Positions 225 through 6,724 of a stretch of 6,724 nucleotides of DNA are shown here, one piece after another (positions within the stretch are counted from its first letter, which is position 1; the number at the start of each line of letters is the position of its first letter). This DNA comes from a virus (taxonomy: Duplodnaviria; Heunggongvirae; Uroviricota; Caudoviricetes), in the IMG/VR virus record IMGVR_UViG_2713896831_000003; one strand, 5' to 3'. Below the pieces are notes generated by a model. That model was not told the origin of the DNA. It worked only from the letters and a program-made list of their open reading frames with translations, and ran no database searches. Both the position numbers and the translations under genes were made by a program.

Positions 225-512
225 ATGAAACCTTGGCATGAAGATGTTAGACGATATTTTACAGAACACCTTATCTATGATGAATCCAGTGATTCCCTGT
301 GCTGGTCTGATGGAGAGTCAGTCACGATAAATACCGACGACTACGGCAACAAAACATTTAATATAGGCCGATATACTTTCTACGTGAAATATGTTGTCTG
401 GTTCCTTTATCATGGCTATCAATCCAACAAGCAAATTATCCATCGAAATGGTAACAGAGCCGATACCAGACCAAAAAATCTTATGCAAGTCCGAGACTTT
501 AAGAGAAATTAG
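225..512 (+). CDS. HNH-type endonuclease-like protein (HNH_3-like), 95 aa
   Basis: ATG at 225 preceded by GAGGAGG (215-221). The C-terminal motif IIHRNGNRADTRPKNL fits the His-Asn-Gly-Asn ... Asn-Leu core of phage HNH_3 endonucleases. The upstream segment YTFYVKYVVWFLYHGY resembles the hydrophobic stretch that precedes this core. Some consensus positions are substituted (Ile for Asp before the His; DTR for DNR). Confidence 0.55.
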   Translation: MKPWHEDVRRYFTEHLIYDESSDSLCWSDGESVTINTDDYGNKTFNIGRYTFYVKYVVWFLYHGYQSNKQIIHRNGNRADTRPKNLMQVRDFKRN

Positions 513-667
513 AAAAATAGCTTCTCAGGCGCTCTCAATCGCATTCTAACGCAAAAAACTATCTTATTTTAGGGTGGGTAATACCACTGTACAGGCTACC
601 CCTGAAAAAGACTGTTTAGCTCGTTACAGAGCGATTGAGGAGGTCTGGTAAAAAGGAGATTTTAAAA

Positions 668-991
668 ATGAACAATTACCCATTACAGATTTTCGTTGAT
701 AACGACACCGCTATGATGATTCAGGCTTTCACTGATGTAGGTGTTAGCATTGACTTTGACAGGCTGTTAAGGCTAATGGCTGATAACTCAGAAGTAATTG
801 AAGACTTTATTCAGTCGGTGGAGTTTAACGAGCCTCGAATGATGCTACCAATTATAGACAGCAACATGAAAAGATTGGTTATCGAGCAAACGAACAAATA
901 CAGTATTAGCCCTGAAAGATATCTCAAGGCAGCTATAGCAATTTTGTACGCTGACAATATTTTGGTGACGGATTCGAAGGTGGTGCATTAA
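668..991 (+). CDS. Hypothetical protein, 107 aa (acidic)
   Basis: ATG at 668 with AAGGAG (653-658) 9 nt upstream. The ORF track starts it at an upstream TTG (635) that lacks a better ribosome-binding site. No recognisable motif. Confidence 0.65.
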   Translation: MNNYPLQIFVDNDTAMMIQAFTDVGVSIDFDRLLRLMADNSEVIEDFIQSVEFNEPRMMLPIIDSNMKRLVIEQTNKYSISPERYLKAAIAILYADNILVTDSKVVH

Positions 992-1081: not shown

Positions 1082-1110
1082 TTGACAAATAACCTTGAGC
1101 ATGACATAAT
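1082..1110 (+). promoter_or_regulatory. Sigma70-type promoter, near consensus
   Basis: TTGACA (1082-1087), 17-bp spacer, CATAAT (1105-1110). Predicted transcription start around 1117. Confidence 0.6.
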
Positions 1111-1287
1111 TGTATATATAGGGAGAGCAATTCTCCTTGAATTAAAATATTAATCGTCTCTACATCGATGATAACTATATTCTGAGTTGGAAAGGTGCAA
1201 TGCTTTTCGTCATGGCCTTTCAGGTTAGTCTGAGAGGCTATCTCAAAAAGTGCTTAATCATTCATTCATTGAACCCTTTACAGCTTT

Positions 1288-1316
1288 GCCCTAATCATGA
1301 GTTAGGGCGTTTCTTT
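1288..1316 (+). terminator. Putative intrinsic terminator or attenuator within the leader
   Basis: Stem GCCCTAA (1288-1294) / TTAGGGC (1302-1308), 7-nt loop, followed by GTTTCTTT (1309-1316). Confidence 0.45.
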
Positions 1317-1387
1317 AAGAGTTTTCAAACAGAACTTTTAAAGAAAGTTTTTCCTGAAACTTCGTTAACGTTATAAAGCAAACCTCC

Positions 1388-1529: not shown

Positions 1530-2240
1530 ATGACAAATGATATTTACATTAATGGCAGAAAGGTTGATAGCTTCGGTGACTGGTCGCCACAGACTGAACA
1601 TCCAGCTATCACTATTCAGCGTAAAGAACACGATGAAAGAATTAAGCTTGAGCAATCGTTAAAGATGTCACCAAAGGTAATTTCCTTTGTGTCTCCTGAG
1701 CCTCAAGAAATGCCAGATATCTGCAAAAGTGAAGCACTATTTAATCTTGAGCGTGAATATTACCCACAGTTAAAAGCACAGCGTATTAAACTTGATGACG
1801 CTTACAGCAAAGTTACCCTGATGCAATCAGCTATTGAGCCGTCAGAATTTGAGATTCAGGATGAATTGTCACAGAAACCATTTGTCTATTACCAATACGA
1901 AGATAATGATGGTTTTGGTACTTTTCCTGAGAATATCCCAGACGTGATTAATAATCTTCCTGACGGATATCGAATTGTGAAGATGGTTAAAGCTTCAAGG
2001 GGTGCTGGTCAATTTATTTATATGACTAATAAGAGCGATGAAGAACTCTGTGAACTTGCTAGACAGAACATCTTGGCATCACGTAACAAGCAACTTGAAA
2101 ATGTTAAGTTGTATCTCTCAAGAGAGCTTCAGGCTATGAAAGAACTTGTTAGTGAATATGAATCACAGAAGAAGATTGCTATGCAAGCCGATATTGAGCA
2201 GTTAATGAAGATTTCTCAGAAATATGCAAAGGCTATTTGA
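1530..2240 (+). CDS. Hypothetical protein, 236 aa, with a predicted coiled-coil-like C-terminus
   Basis: ATG at 1530 with AGAGGA (1517-1522) 7 nt upstream. Long ORF with codon usage consistent with its neighbours. No recognisable catalytic motif. Confidence 0.7.
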   Translation: MTNDIYINGRKVDSFGDWSPQTEHPAITIQRKEHDERIKLEQSLKMSPKVISFVSPEPQEMPDICKSEALFNLEREYYPQLKAQRIKLDDAYSKVTLMQSAIEPSEFEIQDELSQKPFVYYQYEDNDGFGTFPENIPDVINNLPDGYRIVKMVKASRGAGQFIYMTNKSDEELCELARQNILASRNKQLENVKLYLSRELQAMKELVSEYESQKKIAMQADIEQLMKISQKYAKAI

Positions 2241-2248
2241 GGTGATTA

Positions 2249-2557
2249 ATGAATGATTTAACAGAACGCGATAAAAGAATTAAAGGGGTGATGGAACCTT
2301 TTGAAGATAGGTTCAATGAAATTAAAACGACTCTTGGTGATATTCAGGAGGTCACTGAATATCTTATTGGTCGTATGGACGAAAAGCCTCTTGCCGAACT
2401 AAAGTGTGATGGTCGGGATGATTTAACGCGACTTCTTATCGAACTCAAGGATAAGATAAATAAGCTTGATACTGTGTATTATCAAACTGGTCTTTCACTA
2501 CGTTATGAAATTCAAAAGAATGAACGCGGTGTCGAGTGTATACACTACTTAGATTAA
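2249..2557 (+). CDS. Hypothetical small acidic protein, 102 aa
   Basis: ATG at 2249 with GAGGTGA overlapping the upstream stop. The N-terminus MNDLTER is shared with the next ORF. Its position two genes upstream of the tape-measure gene is compatible with a tail assembly chaperone, but there is no direct evidence. Confidence 0.65.
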   Translation: MNDLTERDKRIKGVMEPFEDRFNEIKTTLGDIQEVTEYLIGRMDEKPLAELKCDGRDDLTRLLIELKDKINKLDTVYYQTGLSLRYEIQKNERGVECIHYLD

Positions 2558-2582: not shown

Positions 2583-2786
2583 ATGATTGATTTAACAGAA
2601 CGCTATGAACTCATCAAGGCAATTAGTGAACGACTGAAAGAACAACCCAACAAACCAAAACGAATCAAATCATCCACCTCTAAGCAAAATAACAGAATCA
2701 GAAGAATCGCTAAATGGTGTCTTGATAAATTACCAAGTGATTGTCAGATTGTTGGTGAAGATGGCAATTATTATCTGGTTGGGTAA
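2583..2786 (+). CDS. Hypothetical small basic protein, 67 aa
   Basis: ATG at 2583 with AGGAGGTG (2571-2578) upstream. The N-terminus MIDLTER is paralogous to the 2249 gene. The central region is rich in Lys and Arg. Confidence 0.6.
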   Translation: MIDLTERYELIKAISERLKEQPNKPKRIKSSTSKQNNRIRRIAKWCLDKLPSDCQIVGEDGNYYLVG

Positions 2787-2811: not shown

Positions 2812-2853
2812 GGGAGAGATTATCGAGTGACATCGGTAGTTTCTCCCTTTTTT
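2812..2853 (+). terminator. Rho-independent terminator
   Basis: Long hairpin 2812-2826 / 2833-2847 (about 15 bp including G-U pairs, loop GTGACA), followed directly by TTTTTT (2848-2853). Confidence 0.75.
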
Positions 2854-2944: not shown

Positions 2945-4993
2945 ATGAGCAAATTTACAGTTGATAGTTTTATCGTTGAATTAGGCTTCAGTGAAAACGT
3001 TGTTAAAGGCTTGCAAAGAGTTGAAAAGGCAGCTTTGCAGTCAGCACAAAGAATTGAAAAGAACCTAAATAAAGGTTTCAGGATTAATACAAAACAGCTT
3101 GATAGTAATTTGACAAGTTCTTTAGGGCAACTTGAAAGGAAGTTTAATAAGGCTTTTGACAAGATTGAACAGAGAGCAAGAAGCACAAAAGCTTTCCGTT
3201 TCACAAGTCAGGTTAATGACGCTATTAATCCTCCAAAACAACCAAGACAGCCACGAATTAGCGGAAACAGAGCAATCACAGCAGCTTACTCAGCGAATAT
3301 GAGCAAGTTAAAGGGCTTTGACCCTGTTTTGCAGAAATACATCAAATCTCAGTTTTACGGGCTATCTGCTAAAGCTGGTCAGATGGATAATTCAAAATTC
3401 AATGAGAAGCTGGCTCAGTTAAATGCTTCAGTCAGAGAAGCAATTGCTAAAGCTAAAGGTCATACATCCACCAGCATTAACGGTGACAGAGCAGCTAATA
3501 GTCTTGATAGTTTGAGTTCAGCAGCAGTTAAAACAGCAGGTGCATTTATCAGCTTTCAGGCTGTACTATCCGCTTATCAGAAGATTATGGAAGTTGGCCT
3601 TCAACGTGCATCATCGGAAAGAAGTATTGATTTCGTATTCGGTGACCAAAGTACACAGGTCAAAAAGTTCATTCAAGATTTAACTCAAATTACTGGTATG
3701 GACACAACCGAAACACAAGCACAGTTTGCTTCATTTGGTGCATCTGCAAAAAATACGATGGGTCTTGAAGGCTCAGAGGAATTATTTAAAAACTTAACTG
3801 GATATGCCCGTTTAATGGGTCGTTCAGATGAGCAGATTCAAAGAGCATTAACCGCAGTATCGCAGATGGCTTCTAAGGGTCAGGTGATGGCTGAAGAGCT
3901 TAAGGGGCAACTATCTGAAGCTTTACCGGGTGCTACTCAGGCATTTGCAAAGGCTTTAGGTCTGACTGAAAAACAGCTTTTCGATAAGATGAAAAATGGT
4001 GATGTTAAAGCCTCTGATGCACTCCCTAAGTTTGCTAAAGAACTTGGTTCACAGATTAATTCCAGAGGTGGCTGGAAAGCTATTCAGGACTCTACGCAGA
4101 CGATGTTAGGGAACTTAAAGAATACTTGGAACAACTCACTAACGGATATCTTCAGAGGTTCTGAAAATGGTCTTCAAGATTTCACAAGAAGCTTAACAAC
4201 GCTTTTAAATAGTCTTGGTGGGAGTGGTAAAACATTAGGTGAAAGTCTTGGTAATCTCATGACTTCTATGTCACACGGTGTCGATAACCTGACTGATATT
4301 AGTTACAGGGTAAGGGCGTTCTTTGACGAGGTGACATTGGCTTATCGTGGTTTAACCGATGAACAAAAGAAAGTTGTTGATGCTTTAGGTTCTGGCTTGA
4401 TTAATAGTTTAAAAGTCTTGGCTGGTGTTATTGCTGTAAATAAAGTTGTTGGTGTAACCAGAAGTATTTACGGGCTTATGACTGCTATCACAAGATTAGG
4501 TCAGGTCGCTGATACTACAGCGGATAACGTGAATAGAAAGAACGGGAAACCATCAAGGTTTAATCTTGGGAATATGCTATTAGCTGGTAGTGCTATCTAT
4601 GCAGGTTATGAAAGATTAGCCTCTACACCTGAACGAATGGAAGCACAAGCTAAATTACCAGAGCTGGCTAAAGAGTCTGGACTTAAGCCAGTATTTACTA
4701 TGGACGATGTGAAAGGTTGGTTTAATAGTGCAGCTATGAATCTTGCTAACTTCCAGCATCCAGAATTAATCACCATGAGACAAGATGCGGCATTAACGAA
4801 TACGGATATCCAAAGCCTGAGAGATGAAATTAGTGCTTTGAGCAAACGTATTCAGGAGCCTGTGAAAGTTTCACTTGGTGGTGAAGTTGCCATTAAACCA
4901 GATGAAACCAGCTTTATGACCTTTAGCAGTAATATCTACGACCAATACGCAGAAGCTACGCTATTAAGTTCATCATTCCCAGAAGATGATTGA
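2945..4993 (+). CDS. Phage tail tape measure protein-like, 682 aa
   Basis: ATG at 2945 with GAGGTG (2929-2934) upstream. The long Ala/Leu/Gly/Ser/Gln-rich sequence looks largely helical by composition. The central segment (ALTAVSQMASKGQVMAEELKGQLSEALPGATQAFAKALGLTEKQLFDKMKNGDVKASDALPKFAKEL) matches the conserved tape-measure domain seen in tailed-phage tape-measure proteins. Ends with three consecutive in-frame stops, TGA TAA TAG. Confidence 0.7.
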   Translation: MSKFTVDSFIVELGFSENVVKGLQRVEKAALQSAQRIEKNLNKGFRINTKQLDSNLTSSLGQLERKFNKAFDKIEQRARSTKAFRFTSQVNDAINPPKQPRQPRISGNRAITAAYSANMSKLKGFDPVLQKYIKSQFYGLSAKAGQMDNSKFNEKLAQLNASVREAIAKAKGHTSTSINGDRAANSLDSLSSAAVKTAGAFISFQAVLSAYQKIMEVGLQRASSERSIDFVFGDQSTQVKKFIQDLTQITGMDTTETQAQFASFGASAKNTMGLEGSEELFKNLTGYARLMGRSDEQIQRALTAVSQMASKGQVMAEELKGQLSEALPGATQAFAKALGLTEKQLFDKMKNGDVKASDALPKFAKELGSQINSRGGWKAIQDSTQTMLGNLKNTWNNSLTDIFRGSENGLQDFTRSLTTLLNSLGGSGKTLGESLGNLMTSMSHGVDNLTDISYRVRAFFDEVTLAYRGLTDEQKKVVDALGSGLINSLKVLAGVIAVNKVVGVTRSIYGLMTAITRLGQVADTTADNVNRKNGKPSRFNLGNMLLAGSAIYAGYERLASTPERMEAQAKLPELAKESGLKPVFTMDDVKGWFNSAAMNLANFQHPELITMRQDAALTNTDIQSLRDEISALSKRIQEPVKVSLGGEVAIKPDETSFMTFSSNIYDQYAEATLLSSSFPEDD

Positions 4994-5004
4994 TAATAGT
5001 CGAA

Positions 5005-5075
5005 TGCTACGTGAAATCTTCTGAACAGATATACCCACCAAAAATTATTTTTTACGTAGCTCACGCTTAACAGAG
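5005..5075 (+). promoter_or_regulatory. Conserved intergenic element, copy B (candidate promoter or operator upstream of the 5151 gene)
   Basis: Collinear with 2861-2931 at roughly 70% identity (by eye). Internal inverted repeat GCTACGTGAAA ... TTTTTTACGTAGC (5006-5016 / 5048-5060). Confidence 0.45.
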
Positions 5076-5150
5076 AAAACACTTATATATCAAAGGCTTG
5101 GTTAAAAATGATTAAAATACACTAAGTCTTTGAAATCAAAGGAGAATTTA

Positions 5151-5924
5151 ATGATTTACTCTAACCAAATCAAATATAGTGGCAAAGATGGCATCTATTT
5201 CCACTTAAGAGATAATGTAGATGCCTTCTTAACCTTATCAGCAACTGAAAACATGGAATTTGACAGCCCTATGCAGGTAACTACACAGAACATGCAATCA
5301 GGGCAAACCGTCACAGATAATGTGCAAAGAGCACCCAGAACAATCACTATTAGTGGTGTCGTTGTAGTTGGCTATGAAGGAAGTTTATTATTAACTCGTC
5401 AGGGTCAATTAGTAGAAAACTTCATTGACACTCTCGAAAGCTGGCGTGACCAGAAGCAAATTATTTCGGTCATCTGTAAAGACGGTATCAAGATTGATGA
5501 CTCCATTATCACGAGTTTTAAAGCCTCTAAAGATGTTGGAATTTCAAACGGCTTAAGAATCCAATTAACTTTTCAGGAAATTAACTTTAAAGCTATTGTG
5601 GGTCAGACTGATATCTCGGCTGCGACCGGAAGGACTTCTACCACAAGTGATGGTGGTGCTACCAGTAAAAAGAATACTGGTAATACTACAACAAGTCTAG
5701 GTAATGGTATGTTGCTGTGTCAGGAGCTATATAATCGCTCTACGAGTGAACTTTCTAATGAGCAACTTCAAGCCCGTATCAATTGTGGTAGAAGTGTCAA
5801 AGTTGAGAATGGAAAAAGCACCTTCTCAGATGCCGCTAATGAGCAAGCTTCAAAGGCGCTTAATAATGCTGGTACAGGTAATGTTTTGAAGAGGCTTTCT
5901 GTGAATCCTAACAAGCGCTACTGA
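5151..5924 (+). CDS. Hypothetical protein, 257 aa, possibly tail-associated by position, with a Thr/Ser/Gly-rich low-complexity segment
   Basis: ATG at 5151 with AAAGGAGAA (5138-5146) upstream. The ORF track starts it at TTG 5130, which lies inside that ribosome-binding site. It sits immediately downstream of the tape-measure gene. No diagnostic motif recognised. Confidence 0.65.
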
Positions 5925-5938
5925 CGATAGAATCTCAA

Positions 5939-6724
<786 letters not shown>

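Follow-up and report, generated by a model that had tools for sequence, protein, structure and literature searches.

The DNA stretch analysed here, hereafter the window, comprises 6,724 nucleotides (nt) of the IMG/VR virus record IMGVR_UViG_2713896831_000003 and contains eight substantial open reading frames (ORFs), among them the genes of two phage tail components, a tape measure protein (TMP) and a tail tube initiator (TI). Comparison with bacterial genomes showed that the window corresponds to 6.45 kb at the right-hand end of an approximately 11.5-kb island that splits the Escherichia coli gene yecE (a DUF72 gene). The guanine-plus-cytosine (GC) content of the window is 34–42%, far below that of the E. 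coli chromosome. The phages VSe11 and VSe102, Ounavirinae of Salmonella, are reported to have 39.0% GC (PMC5968733), and the nearness of the window to this phage value was counted as support for a phage-linked island.

The TMP gene occupies positions 2945–4993 of the plus strand and is a genuine ORF of 682 amino acids (aa). Its product matches Pfam TMP_3 (65.1 bits, cut-off 41), TIGR02675 (53.9 bits, cut-off 21.35), PHROG 4036 (E = 8.5e-86) and the solved TMP gp017 of Bas63 (PDB 9NDY_F, E = 3.7e-69). The assignment as a TMP, made in an initial annotation from the sequence alone, was thus borne out by matches above threshold, and the profile searches proposed there did not overturn it. Among 50,697 phage records, the closest TMP shares about 31% identity and the best matches all belong to Ounavirinae; the aa identity to the TMP of Felixounavirus CRP22 is 31%, and the same value holds for Felixounavirus gp17. 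The similarity is unevenly distributed along the protein. The first approximately 45 aa are phage-like (about 75% identity in protein and about 80% in DNA), and so is the C-terminal tip (LLSSSFPEDD), where the motif LLSSS[FY]PE[DE][DE] is common to phage and island, whereas the body between these two ends is island-specific. The phage TMP has 742 aa, as against 682 aa for the window allele.

The TI gene is located directly 3' of the TMP gene at 5151–5924 on the plus strand and encodes a protein of 257 aa with a Dit-like fold. The mechanically called ORF begins at a TTG at 5130, and the ATG at 5151 was taken as the gene start. The protein matches Pfam Dit_like PF21821 (72.6 bits, cut-off 24.2), PHROG 3721 (E = 1.9e-137) and the Bas63 'tube initiator protein gp018' (PDB 9NDY_A, E = 1.7e-127), by which the single structural gene that had been noticed downstream of the TMP is now identified. 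The adjacency of the two genes reproduces the gp17–gp18 synteny of Felixounavirus, and among phages the TI family is confined to Ounavirinae. Overall, TI is 81% identical in aa sequence to Felixounavirus gp18. This value conceals a sharp division: the tube-like N-domain (aa 1–185) is 95% identical to the phage protein, while the C-terminal extension (aa ~186–257) is island-specific, being similar in length to that of the phage and 46% identical to it (32–46% over the comparisons made).

The same division is visible in the DNA. In a megablast search, positions 5166–5709 of the window matched more than 200 Felixounavirus genomes at 90–95% nt identity, the N-domain value being 94.9% over 544 nt, and no stretch of the window beyond 5166–5709 matched any of the 50,697 phage records. 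The synonymous divergence (dS) of the N-domain to phage CRP22 is 0.22, lower than that to the sister islands (0.27–0.38), while the synonymous sites of the C-terminal extension are saturated relative to the phage. This mosaic of a low-divergence N-domain and a saturated extension holds for all islands of the yecE type; the TI alleles of a second type, inserted at yciI/tonB, lie further away, with Mooglevirus as their nearest relative in DNA. Judged by these distances, the TI N-domain belongs to the Felixounavirus gene pool and takes part in ongoing exchange with the phages.

In E. coli AR434 (locus L001), the island is uninterrupted and lies between the two halves of yecE. It consists, in order, of the gene of an HNH-AP2 endonuclease, about 1.5 kb without ORFs, p185, p92, p71, HNH95, p107/118, p236, p102, p67, the TMP and TI genes and a convergent gene for a 507-aa serine recombinase. 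No further tail genes are present between the yecE halves of uninterrupted copies. Homologues of tube, sheath and chaperone that would provide the TMP with a tail-operon setting were searched for in the window and the whole island and none were found, and no other ORF of either matched capsid, portal, terminase, sheath, tube, baseplate-wedge or fibre families in Pfam, PHROGs or NCBIfam. The initial annotation had described a TMP and one downstream structural gene in a setting without recognised major tail, baseplate, fibre, capsid, portal and terminase genes, and had allowed for a contiguous tail module just outside the window. The profile searches of window and complete island confirmed the former, and the module was looked for in the flanks and is not there. 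The core of the description therefore holds with the wider neighbourhood in view: TMP and TI stand alone in an island bounded by yecE.

The island has its own means of integration, a large serine recombinase that inserts it into yecE. Each junction contains the att core AAAATCA, an attP with inverted arms of 9 bp (GTGTATTTA...TAAATACAC) can be reconstructed from the island side, and excision is predicted to yield the attP ...GTGTATTTAAACGTGTCTAATAAAAATCATCAAGGTCTAAATACAC... together with attB, the restored yecE. The full 507-aa recombinase contains Resolvase, Recombinase and Zn_ribbon domains and is intact in other strains, for instance AR434, FDAARGOS_1252 and strains of the O157 Rafaela type. 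The window retains its C-terminal 214 aa (5939–6583, minus strand; zinc ribbon and coiled coil, Pfam Zn_ribbon_recom), which accounts for the convergent recombinase fragment seen initially; it is a fragment because an insertion sequence (IS) end begins at 6585 and removes the catalytic N-terminal part. This IS100/IS21-family end (6585–6724) has an inverted counterpart at the other edge of the window, positions 1–139 being a perfect inverted copy of 6585–6723 (139 nt, 100% complementary) that interrupts the small gene p71. Plasmid matches under 1–163 are annotated as IS100kyp istB, and the matches to E. coli chromosomal islands begin at 134 and end at 6584. Since IS100 splits the recombinase gene, the window copy cannot excise by itself. 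No complete genome in the collection has exactly both IS junctions of the window.

Relatives of the TMP–TI region, at least partial and with 76–100% nt identity, were found in 481 of the 5426 complete E. coli genomes, all of them on chromosomes; the resulting share of about 9% refers to matches to this region, which are often partial. Further copies were found in IMG/VR prophage calls, in Citrobacter and in E. albertii, and protein names in a large database add E. fergusonii, Shigella and Salmonella Typhi. The sampled copies include L005 and L006 at yecE and L007, L008 and L019 at yciI/tonB. All sampled islands share one order, namely variable cargo, small proteins, p236, p67, TMP, TI and recombinase, and this order is kept even though the islands at the two sites have diverged to 34% identity in the recombinases, 24–26% in p236 and 49–59% in TMP. 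A larger prophage with a related TMP was considered as a source, and every sampled relative proved to be the same small island.

The ratio of nonsynonymous to synonymous substitution rates (dN/dS) was determined for nine TMP and nine TI alleles, all of them intact. The pairwise values are 0.17–0.46 for TMP and 0.08–0.25 for TI, indicating purifying selection on both, and the length of TMP varies between 679 and 725 aa. The copy L009 was left out of this set as its TI gene is cut by an IS. On this metagenome-derived contig (5286–14616), the interrupting element is of the IS21 family and is followed by a P4-like satellite with Psu, Ogr/Delta and Ash. From order and selection together, the family is a compact mobile element that keeps TMP and TI in working order; the same compact order in diverged copies and the low dN/dS make a pattern that independent prophage decay cannot give.

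Alignment of the island to a complete Felixounavirus genome revealed three homologues only: TMP (31%), TI (81%) and the HNH-AP2 endonuclease (42%). In Felixounavirus, which comprises virulent myophages of the Felix O1-like group (Ounavirinae), the tail genes are ordered as sheath, tube, two chaperones, TMP and TI, followed by spacer, hub and wedges. The island thus has the same two genes as Bas63 and Felix O1 (gp17–gp18), in the same order and orientation and with conserved TMP termini. The difference is that the phage genes are part of a complete head-tail operon, while those of the island are alone, each behind its own conserved element, and have diverged in the TMP body and the TI extension. 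The cryo-electron microscopy structure of Bas63 shows the two proteins in the phage: TI forms a hexamer with a tube-like fold and a C-terminal extension of about 100 residues passing through the baseplate, and the last 25 residues of TMP lie against the hub and the puncture protein (PMC12609058). On this comparison, the parts that would touch other tail components, i.e., the tube, the neck end and the hub with the puncture protein, are conserved or freshly exchanged with phages, and the rest is kept different. As the interface regions match the phage, the island TMP and TI read as proteins meant to be assembled, together with parts supplied by the phage, into a tail of the Felix O1 type.

Upstream of each of the two genes lies a copy of a conserved 66-nt element, type e1 at 2861–2926 before TMP and type e2 at 5005–5070 before TI, both on the plus strand and forming a direct repeat. 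The e1 pattern is TGCTACGTGAAATCT...ATACCCAC...AAAAAT...TTTACGTA..CACGCTTAA, and the element contains the inverted half-sites ACGTGAAA/TTTCACGT, the second of which can also be written TTT(C)ACGT. Seventeen copies were aligned, and the length of the element is 66–71 nt. Islands with 50–77% identity in their coding regions have the element in 100% identical form, and the e1 and e2 types trade positions between islands. A sigma-70 promoter scan gave no match inside it. It was also considered as a copied phage promoter, which was ruled out as no match was found in CRP22. The element may be a regulated promoter or operator, or alternatively a recombination site for the exchange of TMP cassettes. 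Ahead of the first copy is a strong intrinsic terminator (2812–2847, plus strand) with a 15-pair stem and a TTTTTTGTAT T-run, also present in the variants L006 and L009, which would isolate the TMP unit from the upstream genes. An own terminator and a putative promoter had been proposed for this unit; the terminator was found as described, while the promoter element turned out to be the conserved repeat without a sigma-70 match.

Exchange of the TMP gene between islands is evident from the alleles. The yecE copy L006 resembles the window in TI (95%) and recombinase (93%) but has a TMP that is 49% identical to that of the window and 87% identical to the TMP of a tonB-type island. TMP alleles have hence moved between island backbones with unrelated recombinases. 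The arrangement of the TMP gene as a swappable cassette between two elements was seen in the window, L006, L008 and L010.

The other genes of the window are small and mostly without known relatives. The 95-aa HNH endonuclease HNH95 (225–512, plus strand) has an HNH_3 domain only (Pfam E = 1.8e-08), falls in PHROGs among the HNH endonucleases and occurs in only part of the island variants. It is followed by the core protein p107/118 (635–991, plus strand; 107 or 118 aa, probable start ATG 668), which is conserved in nine variants and has no family match in Pfam, PHROGs or NCBIfam; the sequence pattern of its C-terminal segment suggests a ribbon-helix-helix DNA-binding motif. The core protein p236 (1530–2240, plus strand; 236 aa) is island-specific and present in every island variant with 24–95% identity. 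Its family is tiny, comprising 20 clusters among 1.84 billion representatives. An AlphaFold2 model (pLDDT 80.9) shows a long coiled-coil hairpin and a small alpha/beta domain; no Foldseek match at E ≤ 0.001 was found for the model and no Pfam, PHROG, NCBIfam or PDB match for the sequence. The NCBI name 'transposase' for this family was not adopted, as no transposase family, fold or motif is detectable, and it is probably a propagated annotation error.

Directly upstream of TMP in every island is p67 (2583–2786, plus strand), a small and very basic core protein of 67 aa with the conserved sequence KWCIDRIP. A role in regulation or in tail assembly is conceivable for it. Preceding it in the window is p102 (2249–2557, plus strand; 102 aa), which belongs to no family, occurs in some islands only and is absent from most variants. 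The two genes share the ribosome-binding site and the first approximately 12 codons (2239–2275 and 2573–2609, 86% nt identity), and p102 appears from this to be a partial duplication of p67. Both were considered as tail assembly chaperones (TACs). For neither was similarity found to the TAC of PLE1 (5IR0), that of HK97 or the Felixounavirus chaperone gp38; p67 had no match among PDB sequences, and its comparison with gp38 by hhalign gave a probability of 0.1. The assignment was left unsupported by these searches.

Between p118 and p236, a putative small RNA gene of about 200 nt was recognised (1082–1317, plus strand). It has an extended -10 sigma-70 promoter (1082–1110; 11 of 12 positions and the TG), a 20-nt core (GAAAGGTGCAATGCTTTTCG) at about 1190–1209 and an intrinsic terminator with a T-run (1287–1309). 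The promoter and the 20-nt core are invariant in all ten island variants, including that of Citrobacter, and the region is 82–90% conserved where the flanking p236 is about 25% identical. The candidate has no Rfam match, and neither known RNA families (Rfam) nor tRNAs were found in the island. Regulation of phage mRNAs by this RNA was dropped as an explanation, since comparison with the mRNAs of a Felixounavirus genome showed no complementarity beyond chance and no clear target.

Outside the window, the left-hand part of the island was examined in L001. The cargo HNH-AP2 endonuclease (16943–17467, minus strand), 42% identical to a Felixounavirus HNH endonuclease as given above, is annotated as 'AP2/ERF transcription factor'; other islands have at this position a Dam-like orphan methyltransferase, a small resolvase or uncharacterised proteins. 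The adjacent 1.5-kb ORF-free stretch contains a non-coding block of about 175 nt (18035–18208) that is nearly invariant between E. coli and Citrobacter and includes one hairpin with compensating changes; it has no Rfam match. In the same region, a 48-nt direct repeat (18359–18406 and 18456–18503; 83% identity at a distance of 97 nt) may be an iteron or origin, or else a pair of regulatory sites, and the repeat and the conserved non-coding blocks are the origin candidates of the island. Weak HTH_36/DnaD_N matches were found in a 322–327-aa protein of tonB-type islands. A mimic of the phage pac site or terminal repeat was also sought by comparing the non-coding DNA of the island to the 579-bp terminal repeat of CRP22, which yielded short matches; the nhmmer E-value was at least 0.2 and the segment was unconserved in other islands, and the candidate was rejected. 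Two elements of O157:H7 Sakai were considered in naming the island and discarded: SpLE2 is a CP4-44-like element with yeeV/yeeU, and Sp13 is a P2-like remnant. In L005, a lambdoid prophage with a tyrosine integrase (18424–28410) adjoins the island inside yecE, so this locus is used by two integration systems in tandem.

The nearest parallel to this combination of features is found in Vibrio cholerae. The PLEs (elements that resemble phage-inducible chromosomal islands) are islands with a large serine recombinase that parasitise the lytic myophage ICP1 and encode a TAC, a TMP and a baseplate hub (PMC12987554). In the chimeric tails they form, the satellite TMP is in and the phage TMP is excluded, and the tails are about 10 nm shorter; PLE11 in addition blocks phage tail assembly with Rta (PMC12987554). 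The tail module TAC-TMP-BhuB is the subject of a study by Mathur, Boyd et al. (Nature 2026; PMC12987554). The island resembles the PLEs in being a small chromosomal island with a large serine recombinase, related to a virulent myophage and equipped with a partial tail pathway of a TMP and a baseplate-centre protein. In both, the TMP is somewhat shorter than that of the phage, several divergent tail-gene types occur within the family, and nucleases of homing-endonuclease descent are present, as is a conserved small RNA, which in the island is a candidate only. Like the PLEs, the island is compact, has its own integrase and att sites and is without capsid, terminase and most tail genes. It differs in its host (Enterobacteriaceae) and presumed helper (Ounavirinae), in having TI instead of a hub as the second gene, and in that a chaperone, RepA, a capsid-remodelling gene and Rta were not recognised in it. 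The relation to phage is also closer for the island TI (81% in aa sequence, 95% in the N-domain) than for the PLE protein BhuB, which is 41% identical to that of ICP1. The likeness is one of architecture and gene kinds; the one PLE sequence compared, the PLE1 TAC 5IR0, gave no match.

Other known systems share less with the island. The EPIP satellites of Mycolicibacterium encode a serine integrase and a TMP of their own, and their particles have tails of altered length (bioRxiv 2025; PMC12822802); serine integrase and own TMP are found in the island as well, but EPIPs add a small terminase, head-tail connectors, a scaffold and a major capsid protein, and exploit a temperate siphophage. PICMIs, P4-like satellites, PICIs and cf-PICIs are likewise small helper-dependent integrative islands, and PICMIs exploit virulent phages and have a minimal set of genes. 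Of their hallmark genes (psu/delta/sid, alpA, pri-rep, terS and the capsid and portal genes of cf-PICIs), none was found among the island ORFs in Pfam and PHROGs; a P4-like satellite merely adjoins one island copy (L009). Rta of PLE11, Tai and Tab are aimed at tail assembly and often located on mobile islands, but are described as small non-structural proteins or sensor systems and not as homologues of tail parts, which sets them apart from the island. Full-text literature searches brought up no account of a counterpart in E. coli or for Ounavirinae.

The explanation we consider best, holding it with belief and doubt in about equal measure, is that the island is putatively a satellite of Felix O1-like phages or an island directed against them, PLE-like, hitherto undescribed and equipped with a partial tail pathway of two genes. 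A fuller version is put forward more tentatively, with doubt somewhat outweighing belief: the islands would form a widespread satellite family of Ounavirinae in Enterobacteriaceae that builds its own TMP and TI into the helper tail, re-copies the TI domain by recombination for compatibility, swaps TMP cassettes between the 66-nt elements and is controlled by the small RNA, making it an independent E. coli counterpart of the chimeric tails of PLE and ICP1. The satellite reading is preferred because of the compact architecture at two sites, the intact att sites and recombinase, the purifying selection and the phage-matching interfaces. Among the three possibilities raised by the initial annotation, a satellite-like element borrowing structural proteins from a helper fits best, while a non-canonical use of a TMP-domain protein is an unnecessary assumption.

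If the satellite reading is right, the following course of events can be proposed. Upon infection by a Felix O1-like phage, TMP and TI would be expressed from the two copies of the 66-nt element and enter the tail assembly line of the phage. TI would work through its tube-like domain, which hardly differs from that of the phage, and TMP would bind the neck side with its phage-like N-terminal end and the hub and puncture protein with its phage-like C-terminal end. From the lengths of the two TMPs (682 and 742 aa; 60 residues at about 0.15 nm), the chimeric tails are predicted to be about 9 nm shorter. Such tails may serve the transfer of the island, deprive the phage of functional tails, or both, as the PLE does to ICP1. 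What the sequences show in this scheme are the identities of the genes, the boundaries of the island with the att core, the distribution of the family, the selection and the mosaic exchange with phages; phage induction, incorporation into tails, packaging, transfer and a protective effect are what we infer.

Several observations weigh against this satellite reading. No sequence evidence of induction, replication, packaging or transfer of the island was found, and neither a replication initiator nor a small terminase nor a pac/cos mimic could be recognised in it. A TAC homologue next to TMP was not found either, in comparison with 5IR0, the HK97 TAC and gp38. In CRP22, the one Felixounavirus genome examined for it, the 66-nt element has neither a match nor motif enrichment, so phage-dependent expression is only a guess. 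The IMG/VR matches are prophage calls in bacterial contigs and not virion DNA; they were considered as evidence of packaging and set aside, being bacterial contigs with the same island, one of them beside an IS21 element and a P4-like satellite. Finally, the clone of the window is often hit by IS elements in the island, including the TMP and TI genes, indicating that present-day selection there may be weak. The insertions in this clone are of IS100 in p71, TI or the recombinase, of IS2 or ISEc12 in TMP, and of IS1.

The lack of recognised packaging and replication genes would be expected if the island served defence only, its TMP and TI acting as dominant-negative decoys in Felix O1-like tail assembly. 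The island itself would then never be packaged, and the island-specific TMP body and TI extension would make the product non-functional and so protect the population. The mosaic of conserved or exchanged interfaces and an island-specific remainder is what such decoys would show, and tail assembly is a known target of defence (Rta of PLE11, Tai and Tab). A decoy, however, has no need of a ruler length, yet TMP is kept at 679–725 aa, with purifying selection acting on all of it; the recombinase, the att sites and the two integration specificities point to horizontal mobility. A PADLOC search for known defence systems in TMP, TI or the cargo gave matches only to a homing-endonuclease model and the orphan methyltransferase, the rest being sub-threshold noise. 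We regard a purely defensive role as unlikely, though as the main rival of the satellite reading.

The IS damage, in turn, would suit a decayed prophage, in which TMP and TI are functionless leftovers of a temperate relative of Felix O1 that have been spread by recombination. The window copy is indeed decaying, with IS100 in the recombinase gene and p71; sister copies have IS elements in TMP or TI, and prophage-finding pipelines call such regions viral. In the test of this explanation, the IS damage was confined to the clone of the window, and the TI of L009 is also IS-cut. The decayed prophage of the initial annotation applies in part to the window copy but not to the family, in which both att sites carry one and the same compact order despite the diverged recombinases, p236 and TMPs, and the ORFs are intact with dN/dS of 0.08–0.46. 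The phage records also contain no TMP closer than about 31%, and the sampled relatives are all the same small island. For the family as a whole, this origin is improbable.

It has also to be asked whether the alternative TMP and TI are spare parts that help phage or island particles to evade defences targeting the TMP, to the benefit of the phage–island pair. The high diversity and cassette mobility of the TMP alleles are as expected for a target of immunity, and the PLE11 satellite's own TMP escapes Rta. On the other hand, no TMP-targeting factor was identified in the island, where only the position and size of p67 make it a candidate, and the idea is a refinement of the satellite model and not independent of it; as a separate explanation, it is given slightly less credence than the decayed prophage. 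The least credible alternative is an integrative element unrelated to phage exploitation with a TMP-domain protein in a non-tail role in the envelope or membrane, for which it can be said that p236, p67 and most small proteins have no recognisable function, but the partner of the TMP is a TI 95% identical to a phage structural protein in its tube-like domain and the conserved TMP parts are the termini that contact other tail components, both of which argue for assembly into a tail.

Felix O1-like phages are widely used in Salmonella and E. coli typing, biocontrol and therapy. If the island blocks or hijacks them, it would in practice help to determine how effective these phages are. The rebuilding of helper tails by satellites was demonstrated only in 2026, for the PLEs of cholera; if the satellite reading is true, this strategy would prove to be general, as it would occur in a second family, one unrelated to the PLEs and found in E. 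coli, Shigella, Salmonella and Citrobacter, which would also provide a genetically easy model of it. The near-phage-identical tube-like domain beside an island-specific extension offers a precise handle on how TI is anchored in the baseplate. Lastly, an island that blocks or hijacks these phages would let genes pass between strictly lytic phages and the chromosomes of bacteria.

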